NCBI GenBank assembly: GCA_041736305.1
Contig: JBGSTX010000083.1
Coordinates: 1-30,671, forward strand
Length of the DNA: 30,671 nucleotides
Direction: 5' to 3'
Source of the DNA: Oligoflexus sp.
GTDB lineage: Bacteria > Bdellovibrionota_B > Oligoflexia > Oligoflexales > Oligoflexaceae
Shown: piece after piece, positions 1 to 6,000 of the stretch
Position numbering within the stretch: the first letter of the stretch is position 1
How the letters are laid out: every line of letters begins with the position of its first letter
Program-made: the position numbers

Positions 1-3000
1 CACTCCCTTAAAATCCAGCTGGCGAACCACACCGATCTCATACATATCACGGATGGCTTCGATTTCTGAGTGGCCGTGATGGACTTTGGTAAAACCCTGA
101 GTGGCATCCAATCCGCAGTAGTTGATCAGGACTGTCGCGCCGCCCGGATGCATCCCGATAAATTCAGTGATGTTGTAGACGACATTGTCGATGATCATCC
201 AATAGCCTTTCAGCCTGTTGTTGTGATCGACTACGGTAGAGATATCGTACTGGACTCGTTCCGTTTCCCAAGCGCGGGCATGCGTGAACACTTCCTGCAT
301 GAAGCGACCTTCGGCTGCCGTTTCGCAAAGACTCTGATGAGCAGCTTTGAGACGGGCCGCTGGAGAACCGCTGAAGAAGCGGGAAAAGCCACGTTCAAGC
401 GCCTCTAGTATAGCCTTCGCAAAGCGCGTTCGGCCGCAAATATAAAGGTAGGCTCCCCTCCCACCGTCCTCGGGCTTTTGCAGCATAGTCCACAGTTGCT
501 GGATGGTATCTTCTCGGAGGAGCAGGTCCTGGATGTGGCAGCGAGGGGAAGATTCATAGGTGAACTTCCCATGATTCGCTGAGGACTTTTTAAAGACCGG
601 GCGCGTATCCTCTTGTGAAAAAATAACATCGAGTCGCAAGGAGCCTTGCGCGAGTCCTGGTATCAGATCATCTTGGTAGTAAAAGTAGTCCCGGGACGGA
701 AGTCCCAGCATGATCCACGCAGGGCCGCTCACCTTATCATGCATACGCGAAGCCAGAAAACTGCGGAAGGGAGCGAAGCCGGTTCCACCGGCTATCATAA
801 TCAGCGGGGTGCTGGGATCCTGCGGCAGACAAAAGCGCGGCGGATGATCGATGATAAAGGAGATGAGGTTCTTGCTGCCGTTGCTGGTTGCGAGAAAGTT
901 GGACGCAGTACCGAGACGCTCGGTAGGACCGTCGTCGCCTTCTGCCTGATAGCGCACCCGGCCCACGGTCAGATGAATTTCGCTCGCCGTTGCCTGAGTT
1001 TCCATGGCCGACGAGATTGAATACATACGAAACTGTTCAGGTGGAACGACCCGCGCAATGTGAGCGGGCGAGTGATAATCGCTCCGCCAAAGGCGAGAAG
1101 GGTCGAAGCCGTCTTTCTTCAAAAGCAATAAGAGGTCCCAGAGCTCCCAGCGAGCTGTGTTCTGATTTTTGATAGCATGAGCCAGAGTCTTGTTCTGAGT
1201 CAGAGCGTGCAGGGCTTCGGCCAGACGGGGCACGACCGGACGAATCTTCGCAAAGCGGAGAAAGGTGCGAAGATTGAGGCTATTGCTAGCCTCGTAGCCC
1301 GAGCGTAAGTGGGCTGCCTGCACCCACTCTTCGGTTAAGAGAATCAGATCATCGCCGGTGGATTCGAGAGCAGCTAGGGTCTTTTCGATCAGTTCTTCGG
1401 AGTTTTCTGGCAGAATGCCGCAGCGATCGCCTGGGGCGTAGCGTATCCCCGCACCCGAAACATCGATCACGACGTGCTTAACGTTCTGGGGACCAGAGAG
1501 ATGCGTCTGCCCCACCGATTTGATAATTCCGTAGTGGCAGCGACTAGGAAATGATTCGAGACGCTCGAGTCGTGAATACTCCAACTCAGCATCGACCTGT
1601 TCCCAGGTACGGTCTTTGAACACGCCCGAAAAACCGCCGATCGTCACCGAACGGCCAACTTTGAAGGCGATTTCAAGGTAGCCAAAGACTTTCATGCGAT
1701 GCCGTCCCAGAAATCCGTTCCTGCCCGCATAGATTTCGAAAGCTTCTCGGAAGAGGCCCATGAGGCTTTCATCTTCCTTTTGACGAACATAATCCGGAAT
1801 GGAAATTTGGGCTGTGGCGTCGATGAAATCCTGCCAGAAAGCTGGGTAGGTACTCCTAAGCTCTTTGATCTCCTTACCAAGAAAGGTCGCGTGCTTTTTT
1901 CGACCAAAAAAAGTGTCGAGGAGGTTAAAGATGGGCGACGAGGTCCCACTCGGCCCTTGGACCCCGGGCTGCACCGGCACGGCAAAGGGTGCCACCGTTT
2001 TCGCCCAGACCACGGGATCTACATGACTCTCGGCTGCAGCATTGGGATTTATCTTGGGCAGCGCTTCGTGAACGACCCGGCTTAGACAGCGGATAATGAG
2101 GTTCAATTCATCGGCAAGGCCGAGCTTGTCATCGATGCGCACAGCTTCTTGGCTGCGGACGATAGCGCCGATGATGGGGGAGCAACGAGCTAATATTTCA
2201 GCTTGCGTCAGATAGAAATGCTGCTCTTCCTGATTGCTTACCGTAGGAATTAACAGTCGCATGTTTTCGACGCGAAAGGGGTCTTCGGCCTCAGGGTCAA
2301 TAAAACGCCAGTTATAGACGATCAGATCGATGTAGCTCAAGACCTCCTGTTCGCGCCCCAAGCGACGTCTAACGTCGGCCCAGGGTAGGTGCAATGCAGG
2401 TGCTAGTTTACTGGGTAGATCGGTTTCAACATAGGCATAGGCGTGCGAAAGCATCGCGAGCACTGCCCCAGCTCGCAAAAGATAGGTGTCAGCTAGGTGA
2501 TCTTCGCTGGCGTCGAGGGTAGGCATCGCCTCGATAGCCTTGCGCAAGTCCAGAGTGCGATAGAGTTCGGGAAGTTTGGCCACTATATCGTCCCAGATAT
2601 GGAAAGGCTCTGGCAGCTTGAGTCTGGGATTTTCGAGCGGCATGAATCCGCGAGAGAGTGAGAGCGATCCGAGATTTTCGTGGCCCAGCATGCGATTGAT
2701 GCGCTCGGCCTGGGTGATGACCGTGCGGGTAGGCACCTCTTCCCGCGGTTTTTTAGGGGAAGCGCGCTGGACCTGGGTGTTTCTTGAGAGGTCGAGCCGA
2801 TAGTCCATTTGGCCTACAAATTGGTACTCACGGTCGAATTCGTGGAGATAGTTGGTCAAATAGCGCTTCTGCCCATCGTTGATCAGACCTTTGAATATTT
2901 CTTCGAGAGATTCTTGCCCGGTACTCGAGTCCATTCTTTTGAGGAAAAAGAGAGTCATATCCTTAGCCGCAAAAAAATCCCGAATATAGGCATGTTCGGG

Positions 3001-6000
3001 TCGGGCCTTGCTCATATCGAAAACGGCACCGGCCAAAGCCGTATGGAAAGCTTGACTCTTAAGATCTTCTTTTGAAAAAATCCGTAAGGGACGAGTAGGA
3101 AAGTAGAAGGGTCTGAACACCGGGTCGGGCCTCACCTCGATCGCCTTGAGTCGGCGAATATACTGCGGGTCCAGATTCATCTGCTCGGCCCCTTTGAGCA
3201 GAATGTTAAGATAACGTCGGGAAGGTTGATAGCCTTCCTGCAGTCGTTCGCTGATACCAAGGTATACGTAAGCCGAGACGGAGCGTCCTGTATAGGTGGT
3301 AACCATCGTCTTGACCCGACGGTAGCTGACTCCCACAGCCTCCAGCTCGTCCAGCACTTCCAGCTGTTCGCTGCGGCAGGAATAGAGCACCCCGTGGACC
3401 ACTTCCCCTTCCGCCGCCTCGATGTTGCCAGTGCCACCCTCTATAAGGAAGAAGTCAGGAATATTGAAGGTCAGACGCCAGGCGTCAAGGATCGCCGGCT
3501 CGGCCGAAAGCGGGGTAACACCCTTGGCTTTCAACGATTTGACGTTCATATTGGAACCATAGCCGAAGTAATAAAACATGCCTGACCCTTACTAAAGAGG
3601 ACGAAAGCGCTCTATGCGATCTGCTTTTGCTTCTATTGTAGAGCCGATGGCCCTCGATTTTCTTCAGTAATTTCTAATTTCTGTCGGTGGGTAAGAAGTA
3701 GGAGCTTGTGATAAGTTTAAAAGGCTAAGATTTTCCCTAGAATATCCGATCATGTTTAAGTAAAGCAGAGAGGATGGCTTATGCCACATAGAAAAAAATC
3801 ACCGATAGCGAGCACGAATCAAGCCGACTCAGGGGCGGGCCTGGCCTATGACTTCACCCTCTACCAGTGGCCGGCGAGCCGCTACACGGACAGCATCTAT
3901 GTCCGTTGCACTAAGGTTCACCGCTTGCTGGGCCTCTTGCAGCTGAAATACAGCGTAGCTGATGTCAGCCTTCCGAAAAGCGCCAACGAGTCTGAAATAT
4001 CTGATAAAGTCAATCCTCTGATGAAAAAGATCCCGATAATGAAAATCGATGGTGGCCAACTCGTCGAAGGAACTTCGAAGATTGTCCACGAGCTCCTGTT
4101 TCGCACAGGTTATAAGGGCTTTTTCCCCTCCAACCCTCTCGAAGAGAGAATGAGCTGGTTCATCGAGCATTGGGCTGAGCGCTGGCTAGTCTGGATGGTG
4201 ATCTACGGGCGCTGGTTTAAGGATGAGAATTACCTGAATTTTGTTAAGACCTTCACCGCGGCCCGCAACAACAGTGACATTCCACTGAGCATCAATTTCG
4301 TGCGGATGCGTGCAGTGCAGATTCTAAAATCTACGGAACTTGGTGGCCTTAAGCCAGGGCCTTATCTCCAGGAACTCCATGCAGGGGCGACGATGCTGGA
4401 TAAGATTCTGGCTCAAAACCAGTTCCTGCTCGGCCCCAAAATCAAAGAATGCGATCTGAGCATCTTCATGTCGCTGCAGTCGCTGCACGACCCTTCTCTG
4501 CGCGAAGAATCCCTGCTTCTTCGAGATTTCAAACATCTCATGCGCTGGCTGCAAGAAGTCGATGCCATGACCCAAACGGCTCACACCCGCCCGATTCCTT
4601 CTGGGCGCGACTGCGACGAGTTTATTCAGGCGAATGCCAAAACTGCTTGAGAAATGCTTGCTTCTAAGCTTTTCATCGGCTCATGGATTCTGTTATAAGC
4701 GCTATAAGGAGGTGGCCATGGACACCCTCGCACTTATCGCTCACGACAGTCAAAAAGCGACTATGCTCGACTGGTCAAGGCGGCATTTACTCACACTAAA
4801 AAAGTTCAAGCTCGTGACGACGGGAACAACGGGTCAGATTCTCGCGGATCAACTCGGCTTAGATGTCAAACGCTTCCAGAGCGGGCCCTTAGGCGGTGAT
4901 CAGCAGATCGGAGCCGCGATAGTCGAAGGTAGCGTTCAAGGCATCATATTCTTTTGGGATCCACTCAGCTCGATGCCTCATGATCCCGATGTTAGGGCTC
5001 TCCTTCGTCTAGCCACCCTCTGGAACATTCCTATGGCCTGTAACGAGGCTTCCGCCGACTTTATTATGGGTTCCCCGCTCTGGGATTCAGGATATAAGCG
5101 GGAGGCGAAAATCGTCGCGCAGTACCTGCAGCAGCGAAGTCAGCTCTTCGTCAAGACCTGAGATTATCGCATAGCAGATTTGGCTTTTTCTATCGCCTTT
5201 GCGAGGGCGTCCTGGGTCAGCTCTTCCTCGGTCTGAGGGTTTTCTAGCTGAGGGAGCGAAGCTGCTAAAGCTTCGAGAGCAGGAAGTGCGCTTCTGGCCC
5301 TGAGTCTTCCCAATGATGATACTACGAAATACTGGATATAGGGCTCTGTGCTGCTTGCTGCGAGAATATCGAGTAAAGCGTCTTCGGCAGCCAGGGTCTG
5401 GATCTGGCCCATGGCTTCGATAGCATTGCTTCGGTTGAGATCCGCTTCAGCGTCTTCTTTATCCTTGGCTCGACCCGCGCTAAATCGTTGGTAGATCGCC
5501 TGAAGCTCATTGAGAGCAAAGCTTTTATCAGCCATATGGGGGGACGCGGCCGCTAGGGTAGCCAGACTTTTCATGACTTGAGCGAGCAGCAGACTATCCT
5601 GACTCGAGGCGAGCGCCGCGATCGACTTGAGGTGTTCGATTGCCCCCAGCTCTGTTAGCGCTTCTAGGGCGCTGTCCTGGACGATCACCGGGTGTCCTTC
5701 TTCGAGATAACGGAGGAGAAGCTCTTTATCTTTCTTAGTTTTGGCGACACTGATGGCAGCGAGCTCTTCCTGGGTGGAAGCGGTGTTTCCCGCTGCCTTT
5801 GGAGGCGGAGCGAGACTCGTGTCAGCCGCAGGTTTAGGCAGTTCGCTAGCTTTCTCTGGTGCGTTAGTAGGTGCTTCCTCGCTTTTGAAAAATTTAGCCC
5901 CGAAGCTAAGGCCGAGCAGCAAAGCGATCAGAATGCCAATCTTCTTCACAGCAGTCTCCTTTGGCTAAGGTTTGCTGACGTTGGCTTGGTAGCGCTGCCA

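Follow-up and report, generated by a model that had tools for sequence, protein, structure and literature searches.

The window analysed here, a stretch of 30,671 nucleotides from an Oligoflexus genome, opens on a reading frame that occupies positions 1..3579 of the minus strand and encodes 1193 aa, which make up the N-terminal three quarters of a protein some 1570 aa long. Its ATG start lies at 3579-3577, and the frame is still open at base 1, where it leaves the window (contig C320); the rest of the protein is carried by contig C382, bases 3-1118 of the plus strand (locus L001). That a single protein is split over these two contigs, as the genome-wide survey's note had proposed, is borne out by a homologue of 1571 aa with 85% identity to the window protein (P0002), which in a tblastn search of the genome aligns with C320 3579..1 over residues 1-1194 and with C382 6..1115 over residues 1200-1571, so that about 4-5 residues are absent at the junction. 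The ends of the two contigs do not overlap, and the same search returned no second copy of the gene in the genome. Further, a 4863-base contig from run X2 differs from the window at 51 of 1197 bases and extends 2906 bases beyond window base 1, and hence the DNA of a close relative runs unbroken across this point. The gene product is a cytoplasmic multidomain haem-flavoprotein.

The Pfam search agrees with the earlier assignment of AIG2/GGACT, IDO, FAD_binding_1, NAD_binding_1 and Cyt-b5 to the window frame. At the N-terminus, residues 4-144 (3148..3570, minus strand) form a gamma-glutamyl cyclotransferase-like domain, with GGACT (residues 4-108, 1.6e-11) and AIG2_2 (residues 61-144, 2.5e-11) both above cut-off, a conserved YGSN motif and Glu80 in 88 of 104 aligned sequences. 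This domain is accessory, its place being taken in relatives by FHA or by nothing. Residues 145-290 (2710..3147, minus strand) match no Pfam family, occur only in AIG2-bearing relatives, and give a weak Atlas lead (0.84) to AIG2_2 proteins of 262-270 aa. There follow, all on the minus strand, an IDO-fold haem domain (residues 283-675, 1555..2733), an FAD-binding domain of the CPR/sulfite-reductase-flavoprotein type (residues 698-895, 895..1488; Pfam FAD_binding_1 1.2e-12), an NAD(P)H-binding domain (residues 928-1062, 394..798; Pfam NAD_binding_1 3.4e-09 over 928-972) and a cytochrome b5 (residues 1116-1185, 25..234; Pfam Cyt-b5 4e-18). NCBIfam FNR-type models cover residues 847-1062 at scores below their cut-offs, and the PDB sequence matches recorded previously were reproduced for the SiR flavoprotein (1ddg, 3.6e-29), IDO2 (9.2e-12) and cytochrome b5 (3ner, 3.9e-11). 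No FMN (flavodoxin) domain is matched by Pfam, and just ~45 residues separate the IDO and FAD domains. The C382 part comprises a conserved helical domain of ~220 aa and a SpoIIAA/STAS-like fold; its model (pLDDT 87.8, 90.9 before) best matches 2q3l_B, a SpoIIAA-like DUF3478 protein (Z 10.5 against 10.8 earlier, rmsd 2.8, 114 residues aligned), and the fold search also returns RsbS and stressosome chains (Z 8.2, 8.1, 7.1). This STAS-like domain is matched by neither Pfam nor NCBIfam.

The IDO domain had been left under the caveat that Pfam covers only the first half of the family model (residues 307-525, aligned with profile positions 8-219 of 412; 1.9e-32, with a score of 113 bits where the cut-off is 26). 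An AlphaFold model of residues 255-690 (pLDDT 84.0, pTM 0.82) settles the matter, as Foldseek aligns it to human IDO1 (E 5.6e-14, TM by target 0.71-0.79, 380-400 columns); on this predicted structure the IDO fold is complete. Likewise, a family profile matches IDO1 and IDO2 at ~1e-33 in an alignment running through the proximal His. The identity to human IDO1 is ~20%. The presumed proximal haem ligand is His627 (codon 1699..1701, minus strand, checked; motif GFLGRHRMKV), found in 121/121 sequences and aligned by the profile with the IDO2 His in the corresponding helix, a residue we take to be the proximal haem ligand of IDO.

One explanation of the protein is a self-sufficient metabolic 2,3-dioxygenase acting on tryptophan (or indoleamine); its NAD(P)H-FAD-b5 chain would only re-reduce autoxidised haem, while AIG2, STAS, FHA and similar parts regulate or feed it. 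The Pfam score and the whole IDO fold favour this, as do Tyr416, Phe455 and Ser544, each 121/121, the counterparts of IDO1 Tyr126, Phe163 and the GGSAG-loop Ser (IDO1 numbering counted off the printed alignment). Against it, Arg231, which holds the tryptophan carboxylate in IDO1, has no counterpart in the 121 sequences, its gapless-aligned position being Tyr in 72, His in 36 and Phe in 13. Further, an invariant Gln stands instead of Ser167: Gln459 (codon 2203..2205, minus strand; motif FYLTQxE) lies at or beside the place of this distal-pocket residue, falling on IDO1 Ser167/IDO2 Thr in two of three alignments and one residue off in the third. Gln459, like Phe455 and Tyr456, is present in 121/121 sequences, and with the nearby Glu461 (105/121) it makes a polar distal pocket that is absent from IDO1.

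That polar pocket is one argument for a different explanation, an electron-consuming haem enzyme organised along the lines of flavohaemoglobin, P450 BM3 or NOS, in which reducing equivalents would be spent at each turnover on aromatic/indole-like mono-oxygenation, NO dioxygenation, or conversion of O2 to superoxide/H2O2 as a soluble NADPH oxidase. Another is the reductase itself, which is complete and permanently fused in most forms and lies nearest to sulfite reductase, P450 BM3, CPR and NOS (the last three at 1.2e-19 to 4.9e-16). Its cofactor sites, counted in the 121-sequence alignment, are strongly conserved: Y853 (119/119) and S893 (118/118) in the FAD motifs RxYS and GxxS, and the NAD(P)H motifs GGTG (GxG) and CG, 118/118 each. 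The two b5 haem ligands, His1144 (codon 148-150) and His1167 (codon 79-81; both minus strand, codons checked), are likewise present in 118/118, and the invariance reported earlier for these and for the His of the IDO part thus stands. A fused, stoichiometric reductase would seem unneeded by a dioxygenase requiring occasional re-reduction, and would better fit an electron-consuming reaction or the upkeep of a sensor haem. Redox-type partners point the same way as the electron-consuming explanation, namely a DsbA-like protein with CGWC, fused or adjacent in relatives, and, at the window locus, a divergent GST-like gene upstream and a convergent MarR gene with an OsmC gene downstream. However, the basis of this explanation is analogy only; near the related loci no gene for detoxification or for an NO-responsive regulator recurs; and the reductase is missing in 30/140 representatives by module BLAST, with no reductase gene beside two such loci (L037, L057). 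We consider it distinctly unlikely.

The family is large: it includes an orthologue of 1563 aa in Oligoflexus tunisiensis and a core form of 1146 aa, and comprises 286 clusters at E<=1e-30, with 495 relatives (493 in the survey) and, as counted before, IDO and Cyt-b5 together in 117 of the 120 listed, the other three being proteins of 785-841 aa on contigs of 3.5-8.9 kb. Carriers again number 13 of the 131 genomes of the phylum. The constant core is IDO, b5 and the helical domain, the last present in every aligned form, whereas many members lack a reductase: nine of ten scanned forms of ~700 aa lack it and keep IDO joined directly to b5, as at L037 and L057. The retention of this join in reductase-free forms makes b5 the partner that stays with the IDO haem most constantly, and supports its being the direct one. 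Enzyme-type ends also occur, namely AIG2/GGACT, an imine-reductase-like end (P0216) and a DsbA-like end (P0174) similar to the gene that lies upstream at 11 Bacteroidota loci; they favour the dioxygenase explanation.

In a census of 78 loci (the focal frame was found in 78 of 80), a signalling-type module, that is STAS, FHA, cyclase, histidine kinase, CBS or cNMP, is fused or adjacent in 49. Fused modules are STAS in 22, FHA in 12 and cyclase in one; adjacent are a hybrid PAS-His-kinase in 15, a CBS pair in 15, cyclase in two, STAS in two and a cNMP-binding protein in one. These counts come from loci that are kin rather than independent events, and histidine kinases are plentiful in Myxococcota. 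A GAF-like + class III cyclase module is fused in P0066/L021; in L020 (4-base overlap) and L039 it is encoded separately by the next gene downstream, and in L008 and L009 it occurs in the neighbourhood. Similarly, a stand-alone copy of the STAS-like domain is directly upstream in L011 and L059. A quick IDO-domain tree spreads the partners over different branches: one main clade has CBS in each of its two sub-branches, and the kinase occurs in Polyangiaceae, Oligoflexus and Chloroflexia branches.

Tentatively, and with a confidence just short of even, we favour a self-reducing IDO-fold haem unit that acts as a redox module, regulated or sensory, and not as the cell's tryptophan-catabolic dioxygenase. 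Electrons would pass from NAD(P)H to FAD, to the b5 haem and on to the IDO-type haem, so that the protein may keep or cycle its own catalytic or sensory haem ferrous. O2 would bind at the IDO haem along with an aromatic, probably indole-like, ligand held otherwise than free L-tryptophan in IDO1, and the haem state or turnover would be relayed via the helical domain to an output, here the STAS-like domain, in relatives a fused or adjacent adenylate/guanylate cyclase, and in others histidine kinases, CBS-pair or FHA modules. The invariant cofactor sites in 121 relatives, the complete IDO fold and the constant core speak for this reading, as do the fusion and neighbour (Rosetta-stone) links to cyclase and STAS-like domains, the census and the SpoIIAA/STAS fold. 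Against it stand the kinship of the loci and abundance of kinases noted above, the STAS-like domain's lack of a family match, pocket conservation stronger than is usual in sensors, and enzyme-type fusions that suggest small-molecule chemistry. Likewise, 61 of 140 representatives are bare IDO-RED-B5-HEL cores without a signalling domain (module BLAST), no kinase, CBS or cyclase gene adjoins the gene in its own genome, and a partner cyclase was not found elsewhere in it. We know of no description of the IDO fold as a sensor, and, as before, no account of an IDO-reductase-b5 fusion was found in print; the protein probably serves as a haem oxygenase or sensor that reduces itself, of a type without earlier study.

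The context of tryptophan catabolism lends weight to the regulated or sensory reading. A canonical TDO is encoded in the same genome and in 8 of the 12 further genomes of the phylum that carry the gene (9/13 in all), kynureninase was not found in the genome (92.7% complete), and among the 78 loci no formamidase, kynureninase or other metabolic neighbour recurs. A passage of PMC4191572 has bacterial TDO and IDO occurring exclusively of each other; another, confirming the wording cited in the survey, states that cytochrome b5 has been suggested as the physiological IDO reductant, a point in favour of a dioxygenase. The proposal of a self-sufficient dioxygenase is supported in its architecture and proposed electron path, given the conserved cofactor motifs and IDO-b5 core, but not as a tryptophan/indoleamine enzyme whose relay solely rescues ferric haem. 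With no Arg231, TDO in most carriers, no kynureninase found in the genome, no recurring kynurenine-pathway neighbour, and signalling modules at 49 of 78 loci, the tryptophan dioxygenase reading is weak and, in our estimate, somewhat unlikely.

Known systems each resemble part of this protein. Flavohaemoglobin (Hmp), P450 BM3 and NOS also combine a haem domain with an FAD/NAD(P)H reductase within a single polypeptide, and BM3, CPR and NOS share the homologous reductase module, yet the haem fold here is that of IDO, not globin, P450 or NOS, and a b5 haem takes the place of the FMN domain. Eukaryotic assimilatory nitrate reductase and Ncb5or fuse b5 to an FAD/NAD(P)H reductase and likewise lead from flavin through b5 haem to a terminal metal centre in one chain; in contrast, an IDO-type haem forms the end point here, where those proteins have molybdopterin or an external acceptor, and the FAD domain is of CPR/SiR type (FAD_binding_1) rather than b5-reductase type. 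The partner-switching proteins YtvA (LOV-STAS) and RsbR (globin-like-STAS, of the stressosome) similarly run from an N-terminal cofactor module through a helical linker to a STAS-fold end, whereas the STAS-like part here is nearest to DUF3478 and no RsbT/RsbW-type partner was seen beside the gene. The haem-based sensors H-NOX/sGC are joined to cyclases, as some relatives here are to class III cyclases, and their haem is kept ferrous by Cyb5R3. Mammalian IDO1/IDO2, with b5 and b5 reductase in trans, share the fold, the proximal His, the Tyr126/Phe163/haem-loop Ser counterparts and, as part of PMC4191572 has it, a likely supply of electrons from an NAD(P)H flavoprotein and a b5-type haem protein; unlike them, the present protein has all three components (in some relatives IDO and b5) in one chain, low identity, the two pocket differences described, and added helical, STAS-like and AIG2 domains.

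Finally, the IDO-like myoglobin of molluscs (abalone and Turbo) provides a precedent for a role other than tryptophan cleavage (PMC4191572), although it is eukaryotic, single-domain and without redox partners; passages of PMC4191572 and PMC1821046 describe the abalone protein, an IDO fold that only binds O2. By extension, the IDO-like domain here might be neither catalytic nor sensory, serving O2 storage or haem handling, or belonging to a decaying gene. This is highly improbable, as the frame is undamaged over 1193 + 371 aa, no cofactor motif varies, storage alone would give no purpose to a fused reductase and b5, and relatives at 41-85% identity span at least nine phylum labels.

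As the genome-wide survey's note had claimed, the focal gene occupies window positions 1 to 3579 on the minus strand; it forms one uninterrupted frame of 1193 codons with an ATG start, open at the window edge. The same note had proposed that the gene is completed on a second contig, C382, and this is borne out by a 1571-aa homologue of 85% identity (P0002), residues 1-1194 of which map to 3579..1 of the window's contig (C320) and residues 1200-1571 to C382 6..1115. Because the homologue maps to two contig ends, the gene must be split there, with some 4-5 residues missing in a gap of about 12-15 bases; mapping of P0002 onto all contigs found no second copy in the genome, and no overlap was found between the ends of C320 and C382. 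A public sequencing run yields a contig of 4863 bases, with 51 differences over 1197 bases, that extends 2906 bases beyond window base 1; the sequencing runs listed include no RNA data. The gene looks monocistronic. Upstream and divergent from it stands a gene for a GST-like protein of 289 aa (window 3781-4650, plus strand), with weak GST_N and GST_C matches and an NCBIfam match to isoprene-epoxide GST (3.8e-07) that lies below cut-off; a divergent GST-like gene at the same position is shared only with Oligoflexus tunisiensis (locus L002, 54% identity). At the other end, on C382 (locus L001) 1115-2095, a convergent MarR-family gene overlaps the focal stop, with a divergent OsmC/Ohr-type gene after it, MarR and OsmC/Ohr genes being a typical organic-peroxide response pair.

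Within the encoded protein, Pfam recognizes GGACT/AIG2_2 at residues 4-144, IDO at 307-525 (113 bits against a cut-off of 26, E 1.9e-32), FAD_binding_1 at 698-895 (48.4 bits against 32.3), NAD_binding_1 at 928-972 (37.7 bits against 22) and Cyt-b5 (PF00173) at 1116-1185 (65.6 bits against 23.7), and the three PDB sequence matches first reported for it (SiR flavoprotein, IDO2 and cytochrome b5) were reproduced. By sequence the second of these domains belongs to the IDO family (PF01231) of the His-ligated haem-dependent aromatic oxygenase superfamily, and a profile built from IDO-only relatives finds both IDO1 and IDO2 (about 1e-33), in an alignment that spans the proximal-His helix. A model of residues 255-690 (pLDDT 84.0, pTM 0.82) matches human IDO1 in Foldseek with an E of 5.6e-14 over 380-400 columns and a TM by target of 0.71-0.79, and 165 PDB chains at E<=0.001; as modelled, the IDO part is a complete, two-lobed IDO fold and not half of one. 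His627, invariant in the alignment of relatives (121/121), pairs with a His that IDO2 has in the matching helix, and is presumably the proximal haem ligand, the counterpart of His346 of human IDO1. Also invariant in that alignment are Tyr416, Phe455, Tyr456, Gln459 and the loop Gly542-x-Ser544-Gly545.

The FAD- and NAD(P)H-binding domains that follow are of the diflavin-reductase type, with motifs conserved in relatives and 1ddg as best PDB sequence match (3.6e-29). Pfam gave no flavodoxin family at E<=1 that could represent an FMN (flavodoxin-like) domain, and NCBIfam cysJ models match only from about model position 190-250 onward, far below cut-off. The module is thus the FAD/NAD(P)H half of the CPR/sulfite-reductase type and, given that no FMN domain is found, a relative of that half, not a member of the diflavin reductase family. 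In the cytochrome b5 domain, which matches PDB 3ner at 3.9e-11, both axial ligands, the His of the HPGG motif and the second His, are fully conserved (His1144 and His1167, each 118/118). The N-terminal AIG2/GGACT domain matches PF06094 and PF13772 at 45.3 and 44.3 bits, above their cut-offs, and conserves Ser9 of its YGS motif (86/87) as well as Glu80 (88/104), by analogy its putative catalytic Glu.

The piece encoded on C382, which no Pfam or NCBIfam model hits, consists of a helical domain of about 220 aa (C382 87-692, model residues 7-224) and then a SpoIIAA/STAS-like domain of about 125 aa. For the helical domain, the fold search returned only generic helical bundles, at Z scores of at most 8.1 that lie under the level meaningful for helical folds, and no named fold or recognisable fold family; its conserved polar residues comprise Glu-x-x-Asn...Asp, Arg-Phe and a later Glu, and its role may lie in interaction or transmission. 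The idea that this domain has a third haem or metal site, at Met29/His65 of the C-terminal piece, was dropped because neither residue falls in the at-least-90% columns of the wider alignment (A4), which hold only Glu, Asn, Asp, Arg-Phe and Glu. The STAS-like fold proposed earlier for the C-terminal end was recovered (model pLDDT 87.8): 2q3l_B matches with Z 10.5 and rmsd 2.8 over 114 of 122 residues, about 2 Z ahead of the next rows, 4xs5 (8.4), RsbS (8.2) and SpoIIAA (7.5 and 7.2). Going by the model, the end domain has a STAS/SpoIIAA-like fold throughout. Its sequence finds no Pfam family at E<=0.1, no NCBIfam match and Atlas leads of only 0.80 (Atlas searches overall gave weak leads only, 0.80-0.84), and no free-standing paralogue was found elsewhere in the genome.

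This protein is one of a large family. When the IDO domain served as query in an exhaustive search, the cluster representatives numbered 1230 at E<=0.001, 627 at E<=1e-10 and 286 at E<=1e-30, and the earlier search for relatives was reproduced, with 495 found and IDO and b5 together in 117 of the 120 listed. Its patchy distribution in the phylum was likewise confirmed (13 of 131 genomes; 7 of 14 in the genus, this genome included). Of 100 confirmed genome loci of relatives, 80 were kept, from Oligoflexales, Myxococcota, Candidatus Poribacteria, Chloroflexota, Thermomicrobiota, Actinomycetota, Bacteroidota, Acidobacteriota and a few Pseudomonadota bins. The constant core of the family is IDO, b5 and helical domain, the last being kept in every architecture aligned. 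A module BLAST of 140 representatives found IDO-reductase-b5-helical order in 61 and IDO-b5, with or without the helical domain, in 30, some of the shorter entries perhaps being fragments; IDO is followed directly by Cyt-b5, with no reductase, in nine of ten scanned representatives of 693-749 aa and in the proteins of loci L037 (717 aa) and L057 (809 aa), neither of which has an adjoining reductase gene. The orthologue of Oligoflexus tunisiensis (P0004, locus L002; 1563 aa) is encoded whole on a single contig, and P0100 is a core form of 1146 aa. The ends vary: AIG2 plus a linker region, FHA (13 of the 120 relatives listed) or nothing at the N-terminus, and STAS-like, GAF-like plus adenylate/guanylate cyclase (P0066), imine-reductase-like (P0216), DsbA-like (P0174) or nothing at the C-terminus. 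NCBIfam offered no model for the family or its C-terminal piece, nor one for the DsbA-like partner and the partner cyclase, and relatives carry only the database names 'cytochrome b5 domain-containing protein' or 'sulfite reductase flavoprotein'.

Fold, proximal His and part of the pocket place the protein in the IDO family; whether it cleaves tryptophan is another matter. Arg231 of human IDO1, which we take to be the residue that binds the substrate carboxylate, appears from the alignments to have no counterpart in the family: the position that a gapless alignment assigns to it holds Tyr (72), His (36) or Phe (13) in 121 relatives, and a profile alignment instead puts the Arg segment of IDO1 in an insertion that the family lacks. 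The invariant Gln459 most likely stands in for Ser167 of IDO1, as two of three alignments concur. Further, the genome encodes a canonical TDO of 285 aa (PF03301, 135 bits; C109:18170-19027, plus strand), and TDO is present in 8 of the 12 other carriers among the phylum's genomes (9 of 13 with this one); the review PMC4191572 describes bacterial TDO and IDO as mutually exclusive in occurrence. Kynureninase (TIGR01814) was not found in this genome, which is 92.7% complete, and no kynurenine-pathway gene recurs beside the gene across related loci. Taken together, the lack of an Arg counterpart, Gln459, co-occurrence with TDO and the lack of kynureninase and pathway neighbours argue against a tryptophan-cleaving role.

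As to mechanism, electrons would pass from NAD(P)H to FAD, from there to the b5 haem and finally to the IDO haem, a path that we infer from how b5 fusions and FNR-type reductases are known to behave. The reductase-less IDO-b5 forms strengthen the case for b5 as the direct donor. A predicted complex of IDO domain, b5 domain and two haems, with scores of 0.46, 0.00 and 0.00, speaks neither for nor against the pairing. In outline the relay put forward in the survey's note is right; its purpose there, to serve a self-sufficient dioxygenase, we read differently. A dioxygenase needs reduction only after autoxidation, and given so occasional a need, a permanently attached reductase fits better with an electron-using reaction or with a ferrous sensing haem. 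A self-sufficient dioxygenase of metabolism is, in our view, rather unlikely. An electron-consuming haem enzyme, be it a mono-oxygenase, an NO dioxygenase or an NADPH oxidase, would make use of the permanent reductase, and we hold it to be slightly less likely again; that the protein binds O2 with no catalysis at all is very improbable.

That modules of cyclase, kinase, FHA, CBS and STAS type are repeatedly fused or adjacent speaks for the same view, electron use or sensing, as does P0066, in which the whole unit lies N-terminal to a cyclase. For this analysis of neighbours, ORFs were called in the 80 loci and clustered, and recurrent ones were named with Pfam; the focal ORF was recovered in 78, for which a fused or an adjacent gene was counted. 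A signalling-type module (STAS, FHA, cyclase, kinase, CBS or cNMP-binding) is fused or adjacent in 49 of the 78 and a DsbA-like partner only is present in 11; the other 18 comprise 17 bare cores and one with AIG2 only, several of them cut at contig ends. Since related loci are kin, these counts are not independent events; in a quick IDO-domain tree of 79 rows, with two main clades (99% SH-aLRT), the partner types are scattered over different branches. In Polyangiaceae, a hybrid PAS-His-kinase-receiver gene lies directly upstream on the same strand, at gaps of 13-66 bases, and in three Oligoflexus-type loci it is divergent instead. A 154-aa CBS-pair gene takes the directly upstream, same-strand place in Chloroflexota and in single Acidobacteriota and Cellvibrionaceae loci. 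The cyclase module that is fused in P0066 (locus L021) stands as a gene of its own, immediately downstream, in L020 (with a 4-base overlap) and in L039, and L008 and L009 have it in the vicinity; in L011 and L059 the STAS-like domain occurs as a free-standing copy just upstream. Eleven Bacteroidota loci encode, directly upstream and on the same strand, a cytoplasmic, 245-aa DsbA-like protein with CGWC (e.g., L040:7141-7881, plus strand), homologous to the DsbA-like C-terminal end of P0174 (residues ~1120-1350; hmmsearch 1e-54). The Bacteroidota neighbourhood was also considered as a biosynthetic cluster and rejected, its neighbours being housekeeping genes. In one Poribacteria locus, a fused anthranilate-synthase-like gene (chorismate-binding plus GATase; L016:4662-6857, plus strand) lies two genes upstream; clustering finds its relatives in three loci in all, and it is thus not a general partner of the family. 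No partner cyclase was found in the Oligoflexus sp. genome, and a CBS-pair gene at C382 5208-5657 was discounted as a partner, the Chloroflexota CBS partners being only distant from it (28% identity, 1e-8).

From this pattern, there is nearly an even chance that the unit feeds into signalling or is a regulated part of it, its output in Oligoflexus sp. being the STAS-like domain. Against this stand the absence of an adjacent signalling gene at its own locus and the prevalence of bare cores among family members, as do the enzyme-type fusions and the strongly conserved pocket. A more specific form of the signalling reading, possible though doubtful, is that the IDO fold constitutes a new class of bacterial haem-based sensor, in which the protein's own NAD(P)H-FAD-b5 chain would hold the haem ferrous and O2, NO or an indole-like ligand would be reported through the helical domain to a STAS-type partner-switching domain, a class III nucleotide cyclase or a hybrid histidine kinase. 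The chain would thereby do what Cyb5R3 does in trans for soluble guanylate cyclase.

All of the parts are of known kinds, and haem enzymes joined to their own reductases follow a known principle; that the IDO fold acts as a sensor in this protein is a genuine possibility. What reduces IDO physiologically has been disputed for decades, and a large natural family in which an IDO-type haem is always tied to b5, and usually to an NAD(P)H flavoprotein as well, provides independent evolutionary evidence for the IDO-b5 partnership and, in the fusion, a single self-contained system for measuring the relay. No member of this widespread family has been studied, and its recurrent linkage to cyclases, kinases, FHA, CBS and STAS suggests that bacteria may use the IDO fold in signalling; if true, this would add a new member to the haem-based sensors. 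Full-text literature searches found no description of an IDO-reductase-b5 fusion, and the matching passages of PMC4191572, PMC1821046, PMC11791213 and bioRxiv 10.1101/2025.01.08.631966 make no mention of one.

Several other genes in the window merit description. A SpoIIE/PP2C-type phosphatase gene (9527-10897, plus strand) lies 6 kb upstream of the focal gene and is not adjacent to it; phosphatases of this type have STAS proteins as their targets in partner switching. An RPE65-type carotenoid oxygenase is encoded at 10979-12439 (plus strand) and a hybrid histidine kinase at 14145-16499 (minus strand), the input domain of the kinase being NMT1/THI5-like (periplasmic binding protein-like). A chemotaxis cluster (17688-24282, minus strand) encodes CheA, CheW, MCP and CheR, and its ORF at 17688-19286 joins CheD, a receiver domain and a CheB methylesterase. 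Beyond it, a MerR regulator with a B12-binding domain (24592-25623, plus strand) has a CarH-like light-sensor architecture.
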